Source of the DNA: a virus
DNA: 64,000 nt
Virus record (IMG/VR): IMGVR_UViG_3300005836_000029
Span: 642 to 64,641 of that record
Direction: 5' to 3' (one strand)
Shown: piece by piece, positions 50,082 through 64,000 of the stretch
How the letters are laid out: every line of letters begins with the position of its first letter
Position numbering within the stretch: position 1 is the stretch's first letter
Position numbers and translations under genes: made by a program
Notes under the pieces: generated by a model
Database searches by the model: none
Seen by the model: only the letters and a program-made list of their open reading frames with translations
What the model was told of the DNA's origin: nothing

Positions 50082-51239
50082 GTGAAGACGCACGAACGAG
50101 TTGCCGCTCGCTACCGCCTTCTGCTCGCCATGAGCCTCGAAGAGGCGAAGGCTGTCCTCGGGTTTCCCCCTGGTTCGAGCCCGAGCGAGAACGAGGTCGA
50201 GAAGGCCCGGCGGCAGAAGGCCATCGAGAACCATCCGGACCGAGGCGGAGACCCGGACAAGATGGTCGAGGTCAACGTCGCCGCAGACGTCCTCGTGGGC
50301 AAACAACGGCCGACAGGAAGCCCGAGGCCCTACTCGAGGCCCGAGCCCCAAGGCACGCCGCCTCCCCCCGGAGGATGGTCGTACGAGCCCCCTCCGAAGC
50401 AGAAGGATGTCGAGGTCACCTTCGAGGAGGCCAAGAGCAAGGCGGGCATCCCGAGTGGCGTCAATTGGTGGTTCGTCACCGAGTCCCACAGCAGCGGCTA
50501 CAGCGGGGACGAGTCCACACGACGGGCAACAGGCTACGTCGTCGTCGGAGAAACCGAGAACGCCTGGGTCTTCGTGACCGTCGAGCACTTCTTCTCGGCG
50601 TACTACTACGTGGGGGGCGGACCGAAGTACGACACCTACCACATGGAGGTCATGAAGCTCCCGAAGCGGGGGAAGCCGGAGCCGGCCTTCCTCTACGGCG
50701 GCGTCATGAAGGCGTGGAAGAACTTCGAGTTCCTCGAGAAGAAGTTCAACTCGAAGATCAAGCCTCTGCCCGAGAGCTGGGTCTTCAGCGAGCGTTTCCC
50801 CTCATCCGGGTCCAGCACGACCATCAAGAAGCTCCTCGCCGACAAGGGCCTGCTTAGCGAGGAGCAGGCGGCGACCATCAAGACCTCGGTCGAGATGGAG
50901 CTCGAGACCTCGCTGGGCGAGAAGCCTGGGTTCGTTCCCGAGCCGACTGCACCCGGCCGTGAGCCCCGGGACTGGTACAAGATCACGCTCTGGATCAACG
51001 GTCGACCCCTCGTGCTTTCGCCCCAGGACACGAGGAAGTTCTTCACGGTCACGAACTACGGGGCCACCAGCAAGATCCTCACCGTGGTGTTCGGGACCTA
51101 CTGGCGTCACGGGGGCAAGAAGACCCTGACTCGGCTGCGGAAGGGCAAAGAGCTCCTCACCTTGATGGGCGAGAAGCTTGGGGACCTGCCGCCCGGAGCC
51201 AAGGATGCTCTCCTCGCAACCGCCGCTCGGCTCAAGTGA
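50082..51239 (+). CDS. J-domain (DnaJ-type) protein with unknown C-terminal domains
   Basis: SLEEAKAVLG...EVEKARRQKAIENHPDRGGDPDKMVEVNVAADVL is a J-domain with an intact HPD motif (50232..50240). Confidence 0.85.
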   Translation: MKTHERVAARYRLLLAMSLEEAKAVLGFPPGSSPSENEVEKARRQKAIENHPDRGGDPDKMVEVNVAADVLVGKQRPTGSPRPYSRPEPQGTPPPPGGWSYEPPPKQKDVEVTFEEAKSKAGIPSGVNWWFVTESHSSGYSGDESTRRATGYVVVGETENAWVFVTVEHFFSAYYYVGGGPKYDTYHMEVMKLPKRGKPEPAFLYGGVMKAWKNFEFLEKKFNSKIKPLPESWVFSERFPSSGSSTTIKKLLADKGLLSEEQAATIKTSVEMELETSLGEKPGFVPEPTAPGREPRDWYKITLWINGRPLVLSPQDTRKFFTVTNYGATSKILTVVFGTYWRHGGKKTLTRLRKGKELLTLMGEKLGDLPPGAKDALLATAARLK

Positions 51240-56681: not shown

Positions 56682-57097
56682 AGCTCCCTACCTTGGAAAT
56701 GGGGGAGGTCACCTTGCTGGTCATGTGGGAAAAGGGGGGCAAATGGGAGGCAACCATCGAGCCCCTCCGAGGGACACGGGTGGGGGACCAAATCAGCATC
56801 ATCGCTCAGGGGGCTCTCACCCATGCCCTCCACGGCCTCTCACGGCCTCTTGTCGACGCCTTGGGGATTCCTCCAGCCGGAGCCCTCAGGAAGTTGCCCG
56901 AAGCCACCAAACAGTGCTCCAAGCGCCGCAATTGCCCGTTCTACCAGAAGGCCCACTGTCACACAGGAGCGAAGCAGATTTCCTGGTGCTTCGTGCCCGG
57001 CGGATTTTCGGATGAGGCCGGAGTAGCCGCTGCATCGCAAGTCATCGCCGAATGGCGCCAGGGGGTGTATGTCGTCGTGGTCAAGGAGGACTCTTAA
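56666..57097 (+). CDS. Hypothetical protein with Cys cluster (143 aa)
   Basis: CSKRRNCPFY...HC...WCF. Overlaps the upstream gene by 16 nt, and its stop overlaps the polymerase ATG. Confidence 0.55.
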   Translation: MSRRVKLPTLEMGEVTLLVMWEKGGKWEATIEPLRGTRVGDQISIIAQGALTHALHGLSRPLVDALGIPPAGALRKLPEATKQCSKRRNCPFYQKAHCHTGAKQISWCFVPGGFSDEAGVAAASQVIAEWRQGVYVVVVKEDS

Positions 57098-60019: not shown

Positions 60020-60601
60020 GTGGCCGAGAAGCACGACTTCCTGTCGGTCTGCAACGATCATGGGGTTCCGGTTCGGGACTTCGAGGCGCAGTTCTGCTTC
60101 CGCTGCCTTCAACCGGAATGTACGCGAAGTCTGAGCGGCAAGAGCCGTTTCGAGAGGCGGGTCGATACCTGGGAGGACCAGTTCTTCAACCACGTCCCCC
60201 GGATGTCCGAGGCCGACCCCCGGTTCGTGCAGCTTCGAGCGAAGAAATTCATCGAGATCGAGCGAGGCCCCGTCCCGGAAATCGGGCGGGCCGTTCGAGC
60301 TTGGATCGACCCCCGGGATCTTGACGCGGCACCCGAAAGCCCGCACTCTACGGAGGATTCTCCCCCGGTCCCTCCTGCTGAGGTTGCCGAAGAAGAGTCC
60401 TCCACCCTGACGGAGACCCCACTTTCCCAGTCCCCTCCACCCCCCGTGCTCATGAACACGCCGTTCCGACAAGGGCAGATGCTACGAGGCTCGAAGCCAG
60501 CGGCACCCCCTCGGGACCCCTGGGCAGCCAAACCCAAAGAACCGGAGATTCCGAAGGTTCGGCCAGGGGCCAAGATCAAACTCGGCGGCTCTGGTGTATA
60601 G
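60020..60601 (+). CDS. Hypothetical protein, N-terminal Cys/His cluster and Pro-rich disordered C-terminus
   Basis: CNDH...FCFRCLQPEC, then a low-complexity P/E/S tail. Confidence 0.6.
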   Translation: MAEKHDFLSVCNDHGVPVRDFEAQFCFRCLQPECTRSLSGKSRFERRVDTWEDQFFNHVPRMSEADPRFVQLRAKKFIEIERGPVPEIGRAVRAWIDPRDLDAAPESPHSTEDSPPVPPAEVAEEESSTLTETPLSQSPPPPVLMNTPFRQGQMLRGSKPAAPPRDPWAAKPKEPEIPKVRPGAKIKLGGSGV

Positions 60602-60634: not shown

Positions 60635-60817
60635 ATGAAATGGGATTTCATCATCGGAACGGACGGCAAGGTGGTCACGGAAGTGATCGATCGCGAGGAT
60701 TCCGTCTGCTCCGAGATCAAGAGGGTCACGAACGCCGTGGGCCGCGAACTCTCCGACGAACACATCGGTCCCGAGTGTGATCGGGTCGAGGAGATCCAGG
60801 GCGGCGGCGGGTCCTGA
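60635..60817 (+). CDS. DUF2997-family small protein
   Basis: FIIGTDGKVVTEV......CSEI...NAVG matches the remembered DUF2997 pattern (FxIxxDGxVxxEVxGxxGxxC...ALG). Adjacent to DUF1257 and Ycf46-like genes. Confidence 0.65.
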   Translation: MKWDFIIGTDGKVVTEVIDREDSVCSEIKRVTNAVGRELSDEHIGPECDRVEEIQGGGGS

Positions 60818-60857
60818 TCTCGAAGCAAGAACCACCGAAAGGAAAAGGACCACCACC

Positions 60858-61196
60858 ATGAGTCACCGTGTGACCACACAAACCGAGATCAAGGACCAGG
60901 CCCTGGCCATCCAGGCCCTCAAGGCCGCCAAGATGGACTTCACCCAGAGCGGGTCGACCATCCGCATCACGAGCGGCCCGATCGCAGGCGCCAGCATCAA
61001 CCTCACCACCGGCGACGTCGAAGGGGACACCGACCAGGGGCATCGCCGGAGCGACAACAGCCTCGGCCTCCTGAAGCGCCACTACGCCGAAGCGAAGATC
61101 CAGCAGGAGTGCCGGATCCAGGGCATCACGATCGAGTCCCGCACCGTCGAGAAGGACGGCCGGATTCGGCTGCGCTGCCAGGGTCACTTCGCCTGA
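60858..61196 (+). CDS. ycf35: DUF1257 (Ycf35-like) protein
   Basis: True start ATG 60858 after aaagga. MSHRVTTQTEIKDQALAIQAL and HYAEAKIQQECRIQGITIE..VEKDGRIRL match the DUF1257 N- and C-terminal patterns. Confidence 0.7.
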   Translation: MSHRVTTQTEIKDQALAIQALKAAKMDFTQSGSTIRITSGPIAGASINLTTGDVEGDTDQGHRRSDNSLGLLKRHYAEAKIQQECRIQGITIESRTVEKDGRIRLRCQGHFA

Positions 61197-61220
61197 TCAC
61201 GCTGCCGACCCCGGCGGAAA

Positions 61221-61262
61221 TGAGGAAGGCCCACTTCGGAAGAAGGGGCCTTCTTCACTTTC
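61221..61262 (+). terminator. Intrinsic terminator-like hairpin after the DUF1257 gene
   Basis: tgaggaaggccc (61221..61232) pairs with gggccttcttca (61246..61257): 12 bp with one G-U. The loop contains cttcgg, and a short ctttt tract follows. Confidence 0.7.
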
Positions 61263-61279
61263 ATCCCTAAGTTCTCGAC

Positions 61280-61291
61280 GAAGCGGTGTAG
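61280..61291 (+). promoter_or_regulatory. gaagcggtgtag motif upstream of the Ycf46-like AAA+ gene
   Basis: Intergenic, immediately after the terminator, 13 nt before ATG 61305. Identical to 53666..53677. Confidence 0.4.
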
Positions 61292-61304
61292 AAGGTACTT
61301 GATC

Positions 61305-62903
61305 ATGGCCCAGTTGAATCCCGACCTGTACTTCCACCTGAAGAGCCTCTCTCGCCTCATCTACTACGTGACCGAGGAAGAGGATCGCGCCATCATGAAG
61401 TTGGCCGAGGTTCTCAAGCCGCACGCCGACGACAACCGGGTCCACGTGTTCAACGCCGCCTTTGGGCTTCAGCCCATCCAAGCGGTCGTGGATGACTGGC
61501 GTCGGCGAACCCATGCGGAGAGCACGACGGCTACCGACATCCATCGGGCGCTCATCCAAATCTACAAGGAGGAGCCCCTCAACAAGAAGAACTTCTACAT
61601 CATCACGGACCCCGAGCGGTGGCTCGTCGACACGCATGTCCAGCGGCGGGTCCTCAACATCATCCACCAGGTTCACGCGGACGAGAACAACGTCAAGATC
61701 CTGTTCTTCATCTCGAACCGGCTGTCCATCCCGCCGAAGCTCCAGCGGTACATCGAGGTCATCTACGACCGTGGGCTCAGCGAAGAGGAGTACGACGAGG
61801 AGGTCGACAAGATCGCCAAGAAGCTCCAGACCCAGGCGCCGAAGGGGTCCATCCGCTTCTTCAAGGGTCTCACGTCGTTCGAGGTCGATGCTGCCATCGC
61901 CCAGTCGGTGGTCAAGACCCGCAAGGACAAGAACCCTGCCGACCAGCGTCGGATCGACCCCAAGTTCATCGCGGACTACAAGCGCCGGCAGCTCCACAAG
62001 ACGGACCTCTTGACCTACGTCGACGTCTCGGCCTTCGGCTTCGAGCAGATCGGCGGAGTGAAGCGGTTCAAGCAGTGGGCCGAAGCCACGAAGGCGTGCT
62101 GGACCGACGAGGGGCAGAAGTTCGGTCTCGAGCCCCCGAAGGGTGTCCTGGCGGTCGGCGTCTGGGGCTGTGGCAAGAGTCTCTCCGTCAAGGCGCTCGG
62201 CAACGCCTGGCGTTTGCCGGTCGTCAGCCTCGAGATGGGGCGGCTGCGGTCTTCCGGGGTCGGCGAGTCCGAGGCCAACGTCTACCGGGCGATCAACCTG
62301 ATCGAGTCGGTGGCCCCCTGCATCGTCTGGATCGACGAAGCCGAGAAGAGCTTGGCCGGCAACCAGAGCTCGGCACACTCGGATGCCGGGACCACGGCCC
62401 GGACCATCGGCATCCTCTCGACCTGGCTCCAGGAAACGAAGTCCCAGGTCTGCCTGGCGATGACGGCGAACAGCCTGAAGACGCTGCCGGTCGAGTTCGT
62501 CAACCGCATCGAGGAACGCTTCTTCTTCGACTTGCCGAACGAGGACGAGCGGATCGAGATCCTCAAGATCCACCTCACCAAGAAGAACCAGGACCCGACG
62601 AAGTTCCAGCTCGCCGAGCTGGCCGAAGCCGCCAAGAACATGGTCGGTCGTGAGATCGAACAAGCGATCCGGTCGGCCCTTCGGGATTCCTTCATGGCCA
62701 ACAAGGATGGCCTGGACCAGGCGATTCTCCTTGCCGAGATGCAGCGCAAGCCTCGCATCTTCAAAACCATGGTCGACGAGCTTCGAGAGGTCCTCGAGTG
62801 GGTCGGGTTCGACCCCGACCTCAACGAGGGCATCCGGGCGAAGTTCGCTTCGGACAAGAGGAGCGAGACCTTCCGGGAGTTCAAGGTAGCTGGCAAGGAA
62901 TGA
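61305..62903 (+). CDS. ycf46: Ycf46-like AAA+ ATPase (degenerate N-terminal AAA domain plus active C-terminal AAA domain)
   Basis: LIYYVTEEEDR, YIITDPERWL, SIPPKLQRYIEV (N-domain); QIGGVKRFKQW, PPKGVLAVGVWGCGKS (Walker A), IVWIDEAEK (Walker B), TANSLKTLPVEF, FFFDLPNEDERIEILKIHL, GREIEQAI, KTMVDELREVLEW. Confidence 0.85.
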   Translation: MAQLNPDLYFHLKSLSRLIYYVTEEEDRAIMKLAEVLKPHADDNRVHVFNAAFGLQPIQAVVDDWRRRTHAESTTATDIHRALIQIYKEEPLNKKNFYIITDPERWLVDTHVQRRVLNIIHQVHADENNVKILFFISNRLSIPPKLQRYIEVIYDRGLSEEEYDEEVDKIAKKLQTQAPKGSIRFFKGLTSFEVDAAIAQSVVKTRKDKNPADQRRIDPKFIADYKRRQLHKTDLLTYVDVSAFGFEQIGGVKRFKQWAEATKACWTDEGQKFGLEPPKGVLAVGVWGCGKSLSVKALGNAWRLPVVSLEMGRLRSSGVGESEANVYRAINLIESVAPCIVWIDEAEKSLAGNQSSAHSDAGTTARTIGILSTWLQETKSQVCLAMTANSLKTLPVEFVNRIEERFFFDLPNEDERIEILKIHLTKKNQDPTKFQLAELAEAAKNMVGREIEQAIRSALRDSFMANKDGLDQAILLAEMQRKPRIFKTMVDELREVLEWVGFDPDLNEGIRAKFASDKRSETFREFKVAGKE

Positions 62904-62906
62904 GGA

Positions 62907-63131
62907 ATGAGCCTCTTTCAGAGCACCAAGGAGTCCCAGGAGGACTCCGGCCTGCCGGACTTCGAGGCATCGGACTTCGACGCTGAGGAGTGGGCTGAGA
63001 CCTTCGAGACGGCCGCCTCGATCGGGGATGTCCTCGAACGCATGCTCGACCGTCCGATGACGACGACGATCGAGGACGGGTCGGAGTTCACGACGACCTT
63101 CGGGCTCTCGCTCAGCGTCTTCGTGAGCTAG
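62907..63131 (+). CDS. Hypothetical acidic protein (74 aa)
   Basis: ATG preceded by gagga. Asp/Glu-rich. Confidence 0.55.
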   Translation: MSLFQSTKESQEDSGLPDFEASDFDAEEWAETFETAASIGDVLERMLDRPMTTTIEDGSEFTTTFGLSLSVFVS

Positions 63132-63140
63132 GCTAGAGCC

Positions 63141-64000
63141 ATGCCCGACGACGACTGGGACGAGCACGACGAGATCGACTTGGTGACCGCCGAAGGCTAC
63201 ATGCTGGAGGCGGGGCAGGACCCTGACGCTGCTCGAACAGCTCTCGAGCAGCGGATCCGCCCGCAGGTCCTTTCCGATGCTCGACCCGAAGCCGACTGGC
63301 TTCGGGATGCCAGGGCCCTCCTCAACGGGAACAAGGCCATCCGAGACTTCGTTCGGGAAGCGAGGTCAGGGGGCATGGCCGTCGATGCCGCGATCGACGG
63401 GCTCAGCATCCGGCTCAACGAGCAGTGGGGCGGCGATCGTGCTGCCGAGGCGTTCGAGGTCGCTACGTACCTCTGGGACGAACAAGACCAGCTCGGCGAT
63501 GGCATCTACCTTGTTTCCCGTGAAACAGGTCGGGTTGCCGTTCGGCTGACCGAGAACGACATCTACCAGCCGAAGCCCGTTCCCCGTGAGGACGGAAGCT
63601 TGGCGACCCCGCTTCCTCGCATCCGGCCGGACATCGAGGCGGGTATCGCCTGCTGGTTCCACGACGAGTCCAGGGAGGACCGGATCGTTGCAACCCTGGC
63701 CGCTCGGGCCCATCAGACGCAGCTCCTTCGAGAGGACGGGGATCCTCGCCTCCTGGTAGCCACCAGGGAGGGTCGGCGGCACATGGTCGAATCCTTGGGC
63801 AAGTTCGACCCCAAAGTCCTTCTACGGGCCGCCGGGGGCACCTCAGGGGCCTTCCTTCAGCGCTTCGAGCTCCGGGCGGAAGACCCTGAGGAAACGGAGG
63901 GCCTCCAGCTCATCGATGGGGGAGCCTACTCCCAGACCACGATGAACATCCAGGACCAGACGACGGTCAACCTCCACCACAACCGGGCGGCCAGTATCCA
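63141..64000 (+). CDS. Hypothetical protein, 3'-truncated by the window edge (MPDDDWDEHDEID...)
   Basis: Not in the ORF track because it has no stop. By manual translation the frame is open from ATG 63141 to the end of the window, with normal codon usage. Confidence 0.7.
   Translation, partial: MPDDDWDEHDEIDLVTAEGYMLEAGQDPDAARTALEQRIRPQVLSDARPEADWLRDARALLNGNKAIRDFVREARSGGMAVDAAIDGLSIRLNEQWGGDRAAEAFEVATYLWDEQDQLGDGIYLVSRETGRVAVRLTENDIYQPKPVPREDGSLATPLPRIRPDIEAGIACWFHDESREDRIVATLAARAHQTQLLREDGDPRLLVATREGRRHMVESLGKFDPKVLLRAAGGTSGAFLQRFELRAEDPEETEGLQLIDGGAYSQTTMNIQDQTTVNLHHNRAASI

Follow-up and report, generated by a model that had tools for sequence, protein, structure and literature searches.

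To our knowledge, the function of ycf35 and ycf46, two genes conserved in plastids and cyanobacteria, has been unknown for decades; here we describe relatives of both, next to a relative of the DUF2997 family, in 64,000 nucleotides (nt) of viral DNA (positions 642 to 64,641 of IMG/VR record IMGVR_UViG_3300005836_000029; the whole of this stretch is referred to as the window). In Synechococcus elongatus, ycf46 belongs to a three-gene operon (0416-0418) that is induced by severe oxidative stress and by light-dark shifts, is dependent on both RpaB and (p)ppGpp and codes for an ATPase that the same report cites as KaiC-interacting (PMC13683863). This operon matches the order small upstream gene, ATPase gene, DUF1257 gene in Anabaena, and the ATPase-DUF1257 pair in dozens of cyanobacterial loci. 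Cyanobacterial DUF2997 is described from a separate cluster, duf2997-ycf35-fed7, where it accompanies a second copy of DUF1257 (ycf35) and fed7, away from the ATPase gene (PMC4284462), and in freshwater red algae ycf35 and ycf46 were lost together (PMC5940233). A literature search identified no paper that treats the three genes as one system or covers their phage copies, and none on the function of DUF2997 or DUF1257. Our comparisons identify the trio as a real, conserved and mechanistically undescribed module, of which the window carries a derived variant found in a clade of very large phages.

The three genes and their families

The window (61% G+C) takes up most of an IMG/VR viral contig of 66.4 kb. 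CheckV estimated completeness as 14% and contigs with close relatives of its genes are 370-530 kb in length, so that it is a fragment of a very large phage. Five public sequencing runs contain parts of the stretch, all from wetland DNA, with no RNA runs among those listed. A sequence-only reading had placed DUF2997, DUF1257 (Ycf35-like) and Ycf46-like AAA+ genes at 60635-62903, and three co-oriented open frames occupy exactly this interval:

60635-60817, + strand: DUF2997-like gene, 60 amino acids (aa), open frame
60858-61196, + strand: DUF1257/Ycf35-like gene, 112 aa from ATG (the listed GTG frame begins at 60777)
61305-62903, + strand: Ycf46-type AAA+ ATPase gene, 532 aa from ATG (the listed TTG frame begins at 61299)

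The DUF1257-like gene lies 108 nt upstream of the ATPase gene. Genes for an SNF2 helicase, a DnaB-like helicase and DNA polymerase A are directly upstream of the trio, which confirms its proposed position beside the replisome; the same cluster includes a weak, sub-threshold primase zinc-finger match (E-value 2e-4, 21.5 bits; cut-off 24.9). G+C content at third codon positions (GC3) is 0.80-0.90 in the trio vs 0.75-0.86 in other long genes of the window, i.e. in line with or slightly above these, which bears out the native phage-like codon usage suggested earlier.

Only the ATPase passes Pfam unaided (AAA, E 7e-20), and in PHROGs it matches phrog_8638 (E 1.5e-85). Its closest solved relatives by sequence are of the Cdc48/p97 type, through the D2 ring (1e-33). 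The predicted model is confident (predicted local distance difference test score, pLDDT, 86.7) and plastid Ycf46 proteins take all five top places among its Swiss-Prot fold matches (E 1e-36 to 2e-40; template modelling (TM) score 0.66-0.76), spanning query residues 2-519, with Cdc48 next at 1e-22 to 1e-23. As tblastn against cyanobacterial genomes also gave matches over residues 18-499 (~30% identity, E 1e-57 to 1e-66), similarity to Ycf46 extends along the full length of the protein. When compared with solved chains, the model aligns with NVL, Rix7, Pex1/Pex6, p97 and VAT (Z 21-24, 457-477 residues) through both halves, which argues that the N-terminal half (approximately residues 1-215), as modelled, is a degenerate, P-loop-less AAA-like domain, with an acidic VTEEEDR segment at the would-be P-loop site.

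The C-terminal half is a classic AAA domain, predicted from its motifs to be active. Walker A (GVWGCGKS) and Walker B (VWIDEAEK), both already recognised as intact in the initial reading, and the sensor-1 Asn (MTANS) are kept in 40/40 members of the window's phage clade. Motifs shared with Ycf46 are found near the N-terminus (Y-x-V-T-x-E-E-x-R; YYVTEEEDR in the window, YLVTSEEER in cyanobacteria) and the C-terminus (R-A-R-x-A-S/A; IRAKFAS in the window, RARPAA in cyanobacteria); both were observed in the present comparison rather than taken from a published definition. Pore loop 1 in the clade is SSGVG, in which Gly takes the place of the Trp of p97 D2. The same position is occupied by Met in cyanobacterial Ycf46 (GSMVG), and some distant viral relatives have KWVG or KYVG. 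After sensor 1, the clade has EFVN--RIEE vs EFLRKGRFDE in most other relatives compared, a two-residue deletion that removes the first of two arginines and retains the second. Relative to processive classic-clade AAA+ proteins (p97 D2, FtsH, Vps4, proteasomal ATPases), the clade ATPase therefore has neither the aromatic-hydrophobic-Gly pore loop 1 nor the two post-sensor-1 arginines that are hallmarks of unfoldases, and the label 'AAA+ unfoldase', with processive action, is doubtful for this clade. Because the pore-loop aromatic and one arginine are lost, a remodelling or switching ATPase seems more likely than one that threads its substrate.

Two ATPase orthologues (P0066 and P0112) contain inteins at different catalytic sites: an HNH-containing intein of ~285 aa within the P-loop (between GVWG and CGKS) and a ~155-aa mini-intein at the Cys that precedes the Walker B strand. 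Their location fits a functional ATPase under selection. A 2-kb ATPase match in another locus (L131:6001-8049) may hold a third.

The 112-aa protein scores just below the cut-off of Pfam DUF1257 (PF06868; 19.0-19.3 bits, E 1.4e-3; cut-off 22.2), which one orthologue reaches exactly (L005, 22.2 bits) and another approaches (L007, 21.4 bits). Profile-profile alignment (hhalign) of 22 orthologues with 13 reference DUF1257 proteins (13/13 matching the Pfam model at E <= 0.01, best 3e-45) was full-length, at 97.6% (E 3e-12, 103 columns). The best Foldseek matches of the predicted model (pLDDT 83) are DUF1257 and Ycf35 models (TM 0.72-0.78), with none among solved structures at E <= 0.001. At the N-terminus, Met-Ser is invariant in the 22 orthologues and is followed by His in all but one (Arg). 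A Met-Ser-His start is invariant in 13 cellular or phage DUF1257 members and has been reported for essentially all Ycf35 proteins (PMC13060386). By profile, fold and this N-terminal signature, the 112-aa protein is a relative of DUF1257/Ycf35.

Two observations concern other members of this family. The annotated start of the DUF1257-like gene 66 of Rhodobacter phage RcKickapoo (L002:5973-6371) is apparently six codons too far downstream, as the frame encodes Ile-Ser-His just upstream, which would correspond to Met-Ser-His given a start codon other than ATG. In cyanobacteria, DUF1257 occurs as two paralogues (L018:4992-5760 and L018:9593-10069 in Spirulina sp.; L025:9617-9964), one directly after ycf46, highly conserved and beginning MSHFSTLRTKITD, the other adjoining DUF2997 and presumably ycf35 proper; in Spirulina both are <5 kb from the ATPase gene.

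The 60-aa protein gave no match to Pfam DUF2997 (PF11211) even at E 10. Its best orthologue scores 22.4 bits (E 1e-4; cut-off 24.1) and the Pfam model recognises 1/35 members of the subfamily. In contrast to these single-sequence results, hhalign of the family against a reference DUF2997 alignment (14/15 members matching Pfam at E <= 0.01) gave 92% (E 6e-7), and 95% (E 4e-8) with a wider alignment; a profile search of the full library with the subfamily returned 82 representative clusters, almost none recognised by Pfam. The DG...C...G pattern and the invariant Cys of DUF2997 are retained, the G-x-x-G glycines before this Cys are lost, and a second Cys is gained in a clade-specific TGP-E/D-CD motif. 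By profile, and by its position beside the DUF1257 and ATPase genes, the 60-aa protein is assigned to a divergent DUF2997 subfamily, below Pfam-level membership. The family names first given to the three genes are thus upheld by Pfam for the ATPase and by profile-profile comparison and synteny (plus fold for DUF1257) for the two small proteins, but not by Pfam thresholds for the latter.

Co-occurrence and inheritance of the trio

Loci carrying relatives of the ATPase gene (80 viral and 80 cellular, 57 of the latter cyanobacterial) were scanned in all frames with models of both small families; in the viral loci with both small genes, these are on the ATPase strand and within 6 kb:

Window's phage clade (38 loci): both small genes in 37, DUF1257 only in 1, DUF2997 only in 0, neither in 0
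More distant viral contigs (42 loci): both in 17, DUF1257 only in 5, DUF2997 only in 1, neither in 19
Cellular loci (80): both in 8, DUF1257 only in 59, DUF2997 only in 4, neither in 9

Small-gene matches in the distant viral loci were always on the ATPase strand. The module is also present in cultured phages, namely the Pseudomonas PaMx31/SM1 group, the Rhodobacter RcKickapoo group and Rhizobium phage RHph_I4, whose existing annotation uses both DUF names; the three genes are numbered 084, 086 and 087 in RHph_I4 and 63, 66 and 67 in RcKickapoo. Co-occurrence of the trio in phages is thus seen in the window's clade, in distant viral contigs and in cultured isolates alike. At least one small gene accompanies the ATPase gene in 71/80 cellular loci, and DUF1257 in 67/80. 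The 59 cellular loci with DUF1257 only are mostly cyanobacterial, with DUF1257 directly downstream of the ATPase gene; the complete trio, described in the first reading as a conserved cyanobacterial neighbourhood, is therefore not the usual arrangement there, where ATPase plus DUF1257 predominates.

Apart from the viral loci, the trio was found in several bacterial phyla. The small genes are upstream of the ATPase gene in the window's clade and downstream in most other lineages, indicating that linkage has been kept through rearrangement. Single-chain DUF1257-DUF2997 fusions were identified beside the ATPase gene in three Clostridia genomes and one viral contig, and natural fusions of this kind speak for binding between the two small proteins.

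In a tree of 163 ATPases, 40/40 clade members fall on one branch (support 100). ATPase identity across the clade is 58-78%, and the order SNF2 helicase, polymerase, Cys-rich protein, trio, ~400-aa orphan is kept, the module being directly after the polymerase gene, in a helicase-primase-polymerase cluster, in 44/45 clade loci. The trio is inherited vertically in this phage clade. A recently captured, decaying host fragment, the contrary case raised when the genes were first noticed, is ruled out by the monophyly of the clade in the ATPase tree, native codon usage and intact motifs.

A proposed machine and its alternatives

We consider it probable, at about 60%, that the trio encodes one conserved machine, an ATPase motor with the DUF1257-DUF2997 pair as its cofactor. 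That the three genes travel together across very different phages, reordered and even fused, argues that they are parts of one machine. The motor would be a Ycf46-type AAA+ ATPase of two-ring-like build, presumably hexameric, with a nucleotide-blind N-terminal half and a C-terminal half that hydrolyses ATP. The DUF1257/Ycf35-like and DUF2997-like proteins would bind each other, giving the motor a dedicated cofactor (an adaptor or a regulator) or, possibly, a client. In the window's clade, the motor would more likely remodel or pull apart a target complex than thread whole polypeptides. From the general protein-remodelling machine envisaged originally, the co-inherited module and the remodelling type of motor are retained, with the unfoldase in doubt. 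A three-chain complex prediction for the ATPase and both small proteins, with their own alignments, scored 0.01, a value that is not evidence either way.

The two small genes and the ATPase gene would then form separate transcription units, each preceded by a GGTGTA box, with a terminator-like hairpin between them:

60593..60599, + strand: GGTGTA box, ~35 nt before the DUF2997-like gene; candidate promoter or start-site element of the phage
61222..61256, + strand: terminator-like hairpin, 15-bp and GC-rich, its tail poor in T, separating the DUF1257 gene from the ATPase gene (fold z-score -3.7)
61285..61291, + strand: GGTGTA box, 14 nt before the start codon of the ATPase gene

A sigma-70 promoter scan found no sigma-70-like site, and the suggestion that the genes have their own promoter motifs survives in the form of this box, which is also found in orthologous loci: 9-24 nt before the ATPase start in 6/6 loci examined (window, L005, L006, L007, L089, L090) and before the DUF2997 gene in 4/6 (window, L007, L089, L090). 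On the + strand of the window, five boxes (51876, 53671, 57064, 60593 and 61285), often with GAAG just before, lie 9-35 nt upstream of the starts of the SNF2 helicase, orf285, polymerase, DUF2997 and ATPase genes, respectively, making GGTGTA a candidate class-specific phage promoter or start-site motif. The argument for the box is one of conserved position only and not of enrichment, as the excess of GGTGTA in the window (20 vs 7.3 expected) is partly a minus-strand codon effect, and the longer CGGTGTA is not enriched there (5 vs 3.5 expected). For the polymerase, the ATG at 57097 (MPSPEEEE...) is a likelier start than 57052, with the box at 57064 between the two.

The hairpin is present at the same position in four orthologous loci, with clear T-runs in L005, L089 and L090 but not in L007; a strict terminator scan did not call the one in the window (61222-61256). 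Its 3' arm (61249-61258) can pair alternatively with 61286-61295, the segment that holds the GGTGTA box and the ATPase gene's ribosome-binding site, GAAGG, and read-through transcripts might thereby hide the ATPase start, while transcripts begun at the box would not. From this layout we infer two phage-promoter-driven units, which may be co-regulated with the replication genes.

Each side of the trio has a further gene characteristic of the clade:

60020..60601, + strand: Cys-rich, clade-specific protein, 193 aa; always between the polymerase and DUF2997 genes in the orthologous loci checked
63141..64000, + strand: orphan protein, 418 aa; runs past the window end, complete in locus L001

The C-x14-C-x2-C-x4-C motif of the 193-aa protein is invariant; the protein also has a Pro-rich linker and, at its C-terminus, a conserved tail, DPW...PGAKIKLGG. 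Among the loci compared, its gene is present in 45 of the clade and on two further viral contigs but is missing from all cellular and cultured-phage loci; the protein may be a fourth module component or a replication factor. The 418-aa orphan is directly downstream of the ATPase region in 42 loci, all in the phage clade, and has no family match and no usable Atlas match. Between it and the ATPase gene (62907-63131) is a very acidic 74-aa open frame (GC3 0.91), shared only with L089, the nearest relative, and with none of the further clade members examined. Pfam and PHROGs searches with the Cys-rich, 74-aa and 418-aa proteins gave no matches, and all-against-all clustering of neighbours in the clade and in other carriers revealed no partner family shared between them apart from the trio itself. 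At 50082-51239, ~10 kb upstream of the module, the window encodes a protein that weakly resembles J-domain proteins (Pfam DnaJ E 7e-4, below cut-off), and relatives carry a ClpX-like ATPase gene ~9 kb downstream of it (L089:18881-20149; L090:20025-21275), so that the window's phage clade appears to carry several chaperone-type genes.

Several points weigh against the trio as a single machine. The DUF2997 gene is usually missing beside the ATPase gene in cyanobacteria, and 19/42 distant viral loci, as well as the locus of Corndog-type Mycobacterium phage, have no small partner detectable by the present models or Pfam; either the ATPase can occur with no small genes in its vicinity or such genes escaped the models. 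With its altered pore loop and missing arginine, the clade ATPase could be weak or changed in activity. Finally, the genes for the Cys-rich and 418-aa proteins are as syntenic in the clade as the trio, so that synteny there cannot by itself set the borders of the module.

The alternative that survives best, albeit with a low probability, is a host-takeover switch, in which the phage Ycf46 module imposes, or blocks, a growth-arrested, resource-sparing host state during replication. It draws on the stress-induced S. elongatus ycf46 operon, which requires (p)ppGpp and is expressed in opposition to ribosomal genes (PMC13683863), together with the full-length Ycf46 architecture of the phage ATPase and the DUF1257 partner common to both. 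However, the cyanobacterial data are transcriptional correlations with no mechanism, and the clade ATPase is only ~30% identical to cyanobacterial Ycf46, with altered motor motifs.

Less probable again is that the ATPase and a DUF1257-DUF2997 heterodimer act as a loader, unloader or resetter of hexameric rings of the RecA/DnaB superfamily, in the phage on its DnaB-like helicase. It is equally speculative that cyanobacterial KaiC and, in these very large phages, the replicative helicase would be the targets. The near-constant position of the module after the polymerase gene (44/45 clade loci) and the GGTGTA box common to the module, SNF2 and polymerase genes are in keeping with such a role, as is the citation of Ycf46 as KaiC-interacting (PMC13683863), since the KaiC ring belongs to the same superfamily as the DnaB-like helicase; the window's DnaB-like helicase also matches the Pfam KaiC model weakly. 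In cultured phages, however, the modules adjoin lysis or nucleotide-metabolism genes rather than helicases, and the KaiC interaction comes from a citing paper, not the primary one. If true, this reading would account for the reported link to KaiC as well as for the fixed place of the module between polymerase and helicase genes, and would provide a function for the orphan genes ycf35 and ycf46.

A defence or counter-defence device, e.g. an IetA-like ATPase system carried by the phage, is more doubtful still. The ATPase matches PADLOC IetA models (E 3e-16) and an NCBIfam anti-phage ATPase model (3.5e-14), but the IetA matches are confined to the generic AAA domain (residues 270-484), and the NCBIfam IteA score (52.7 bits) is far from the cut-off of 510. 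No IetS-type protease gene adjoins the ATPase gene, neither small protein matched a defence model, and the ATPase gene has been passed on vertically as part of a replication cluster and not in a variable island. As PADLOC gave only generic AAA-level IetA and TRIP13 matches, assignment to a defence system was rejected. That there is no system, only three unrelated genes syntenic within one phage lineage, is very improbable: the whole region, neighbours included, is indeed syntenic within the clade, but the same families occur together in a different order in unrelated phages and several bacterial phyla, DUF1257 and DUF2997 occur fused, and Pfam (E <= 0.01) confirms 14/15 DUF2997 and 13/13 DUF1257 neighbours.

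For the proposed machine, the cultured Rhizobium, Rhodobacter and Pseudomonas carriers open function to ordinary genetic and biochemical work on phages instead of on slow-growing algae, and the altered motor of the window's clade is a natural variant that could reveal which motor features the system needs.

Comparison with known systems

The window ATPase shares with Ycf46 (Synpcc7942_0417 and the red-algal and diatom products) the full-length architecture, the VT-x-EE-x-R and RAR-x-AS motifs and a DUF1257 gene alongside. It differs in being phage-borne, within a replication cluster, in having SSGVG in place of cyanobacterial GSMVG, and in the deletion of the first post-sensor-1 Arg. At the locus level, the small genes are upstream rather than downstream, DUF2997 is present and there is no CopG-like regulator gene. 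Compared with the duf2997-ycf35-fed7 cluster, the small proteins of the window show homology by profile and fold, including the Met-Ser-His start and the invariant Cys of DUF2997, but fall below Pfam thresholds, with Cys/Gly changes in the DUF2997-like protein, and no ferredoxin gene is nearby.

Both halves of the ATPase align structurally with two-ring AAA+ proteins that have an inactive first ring (p97/Cdc48/VAT, NVL/Rix7, Pex1/Pex6), and a likeness of the small proteins to the dedicated cofactors of such motors is plausible. Unlike these, the window ATPase has no separate N-domain, no P-loop in the first ring and no aromatic pore-loop residue in the active ring, and its partner folds have no solved relative.

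The ATPases of cultured phages (phrog_8638; RHph_I4, the RcKickapoo group, the PaMx31/SM1 group and Corndog gp96) belong to the same family, at 25-29% identity. RHph_I4 has Pfam-detectable DUF2997 and DUF1257 and RcKickapoo Pfam-detectable DUF2997, while the RcKickapoo DUF1257-like gene, with no Pfam DUF1257 match, was recognised solely through tblastn (28% identity, E 2e-5) and its position. In contrast to the window, the order in these phages is ATPase, a 212-230-aa protein, DUF1257, DUF2997, outside any replication cluster, and their ATPases have both post-sensor-1 arginines, with F (RcKickapoo), Y (Corndog) or L (RHph_I4) in the pore loop.

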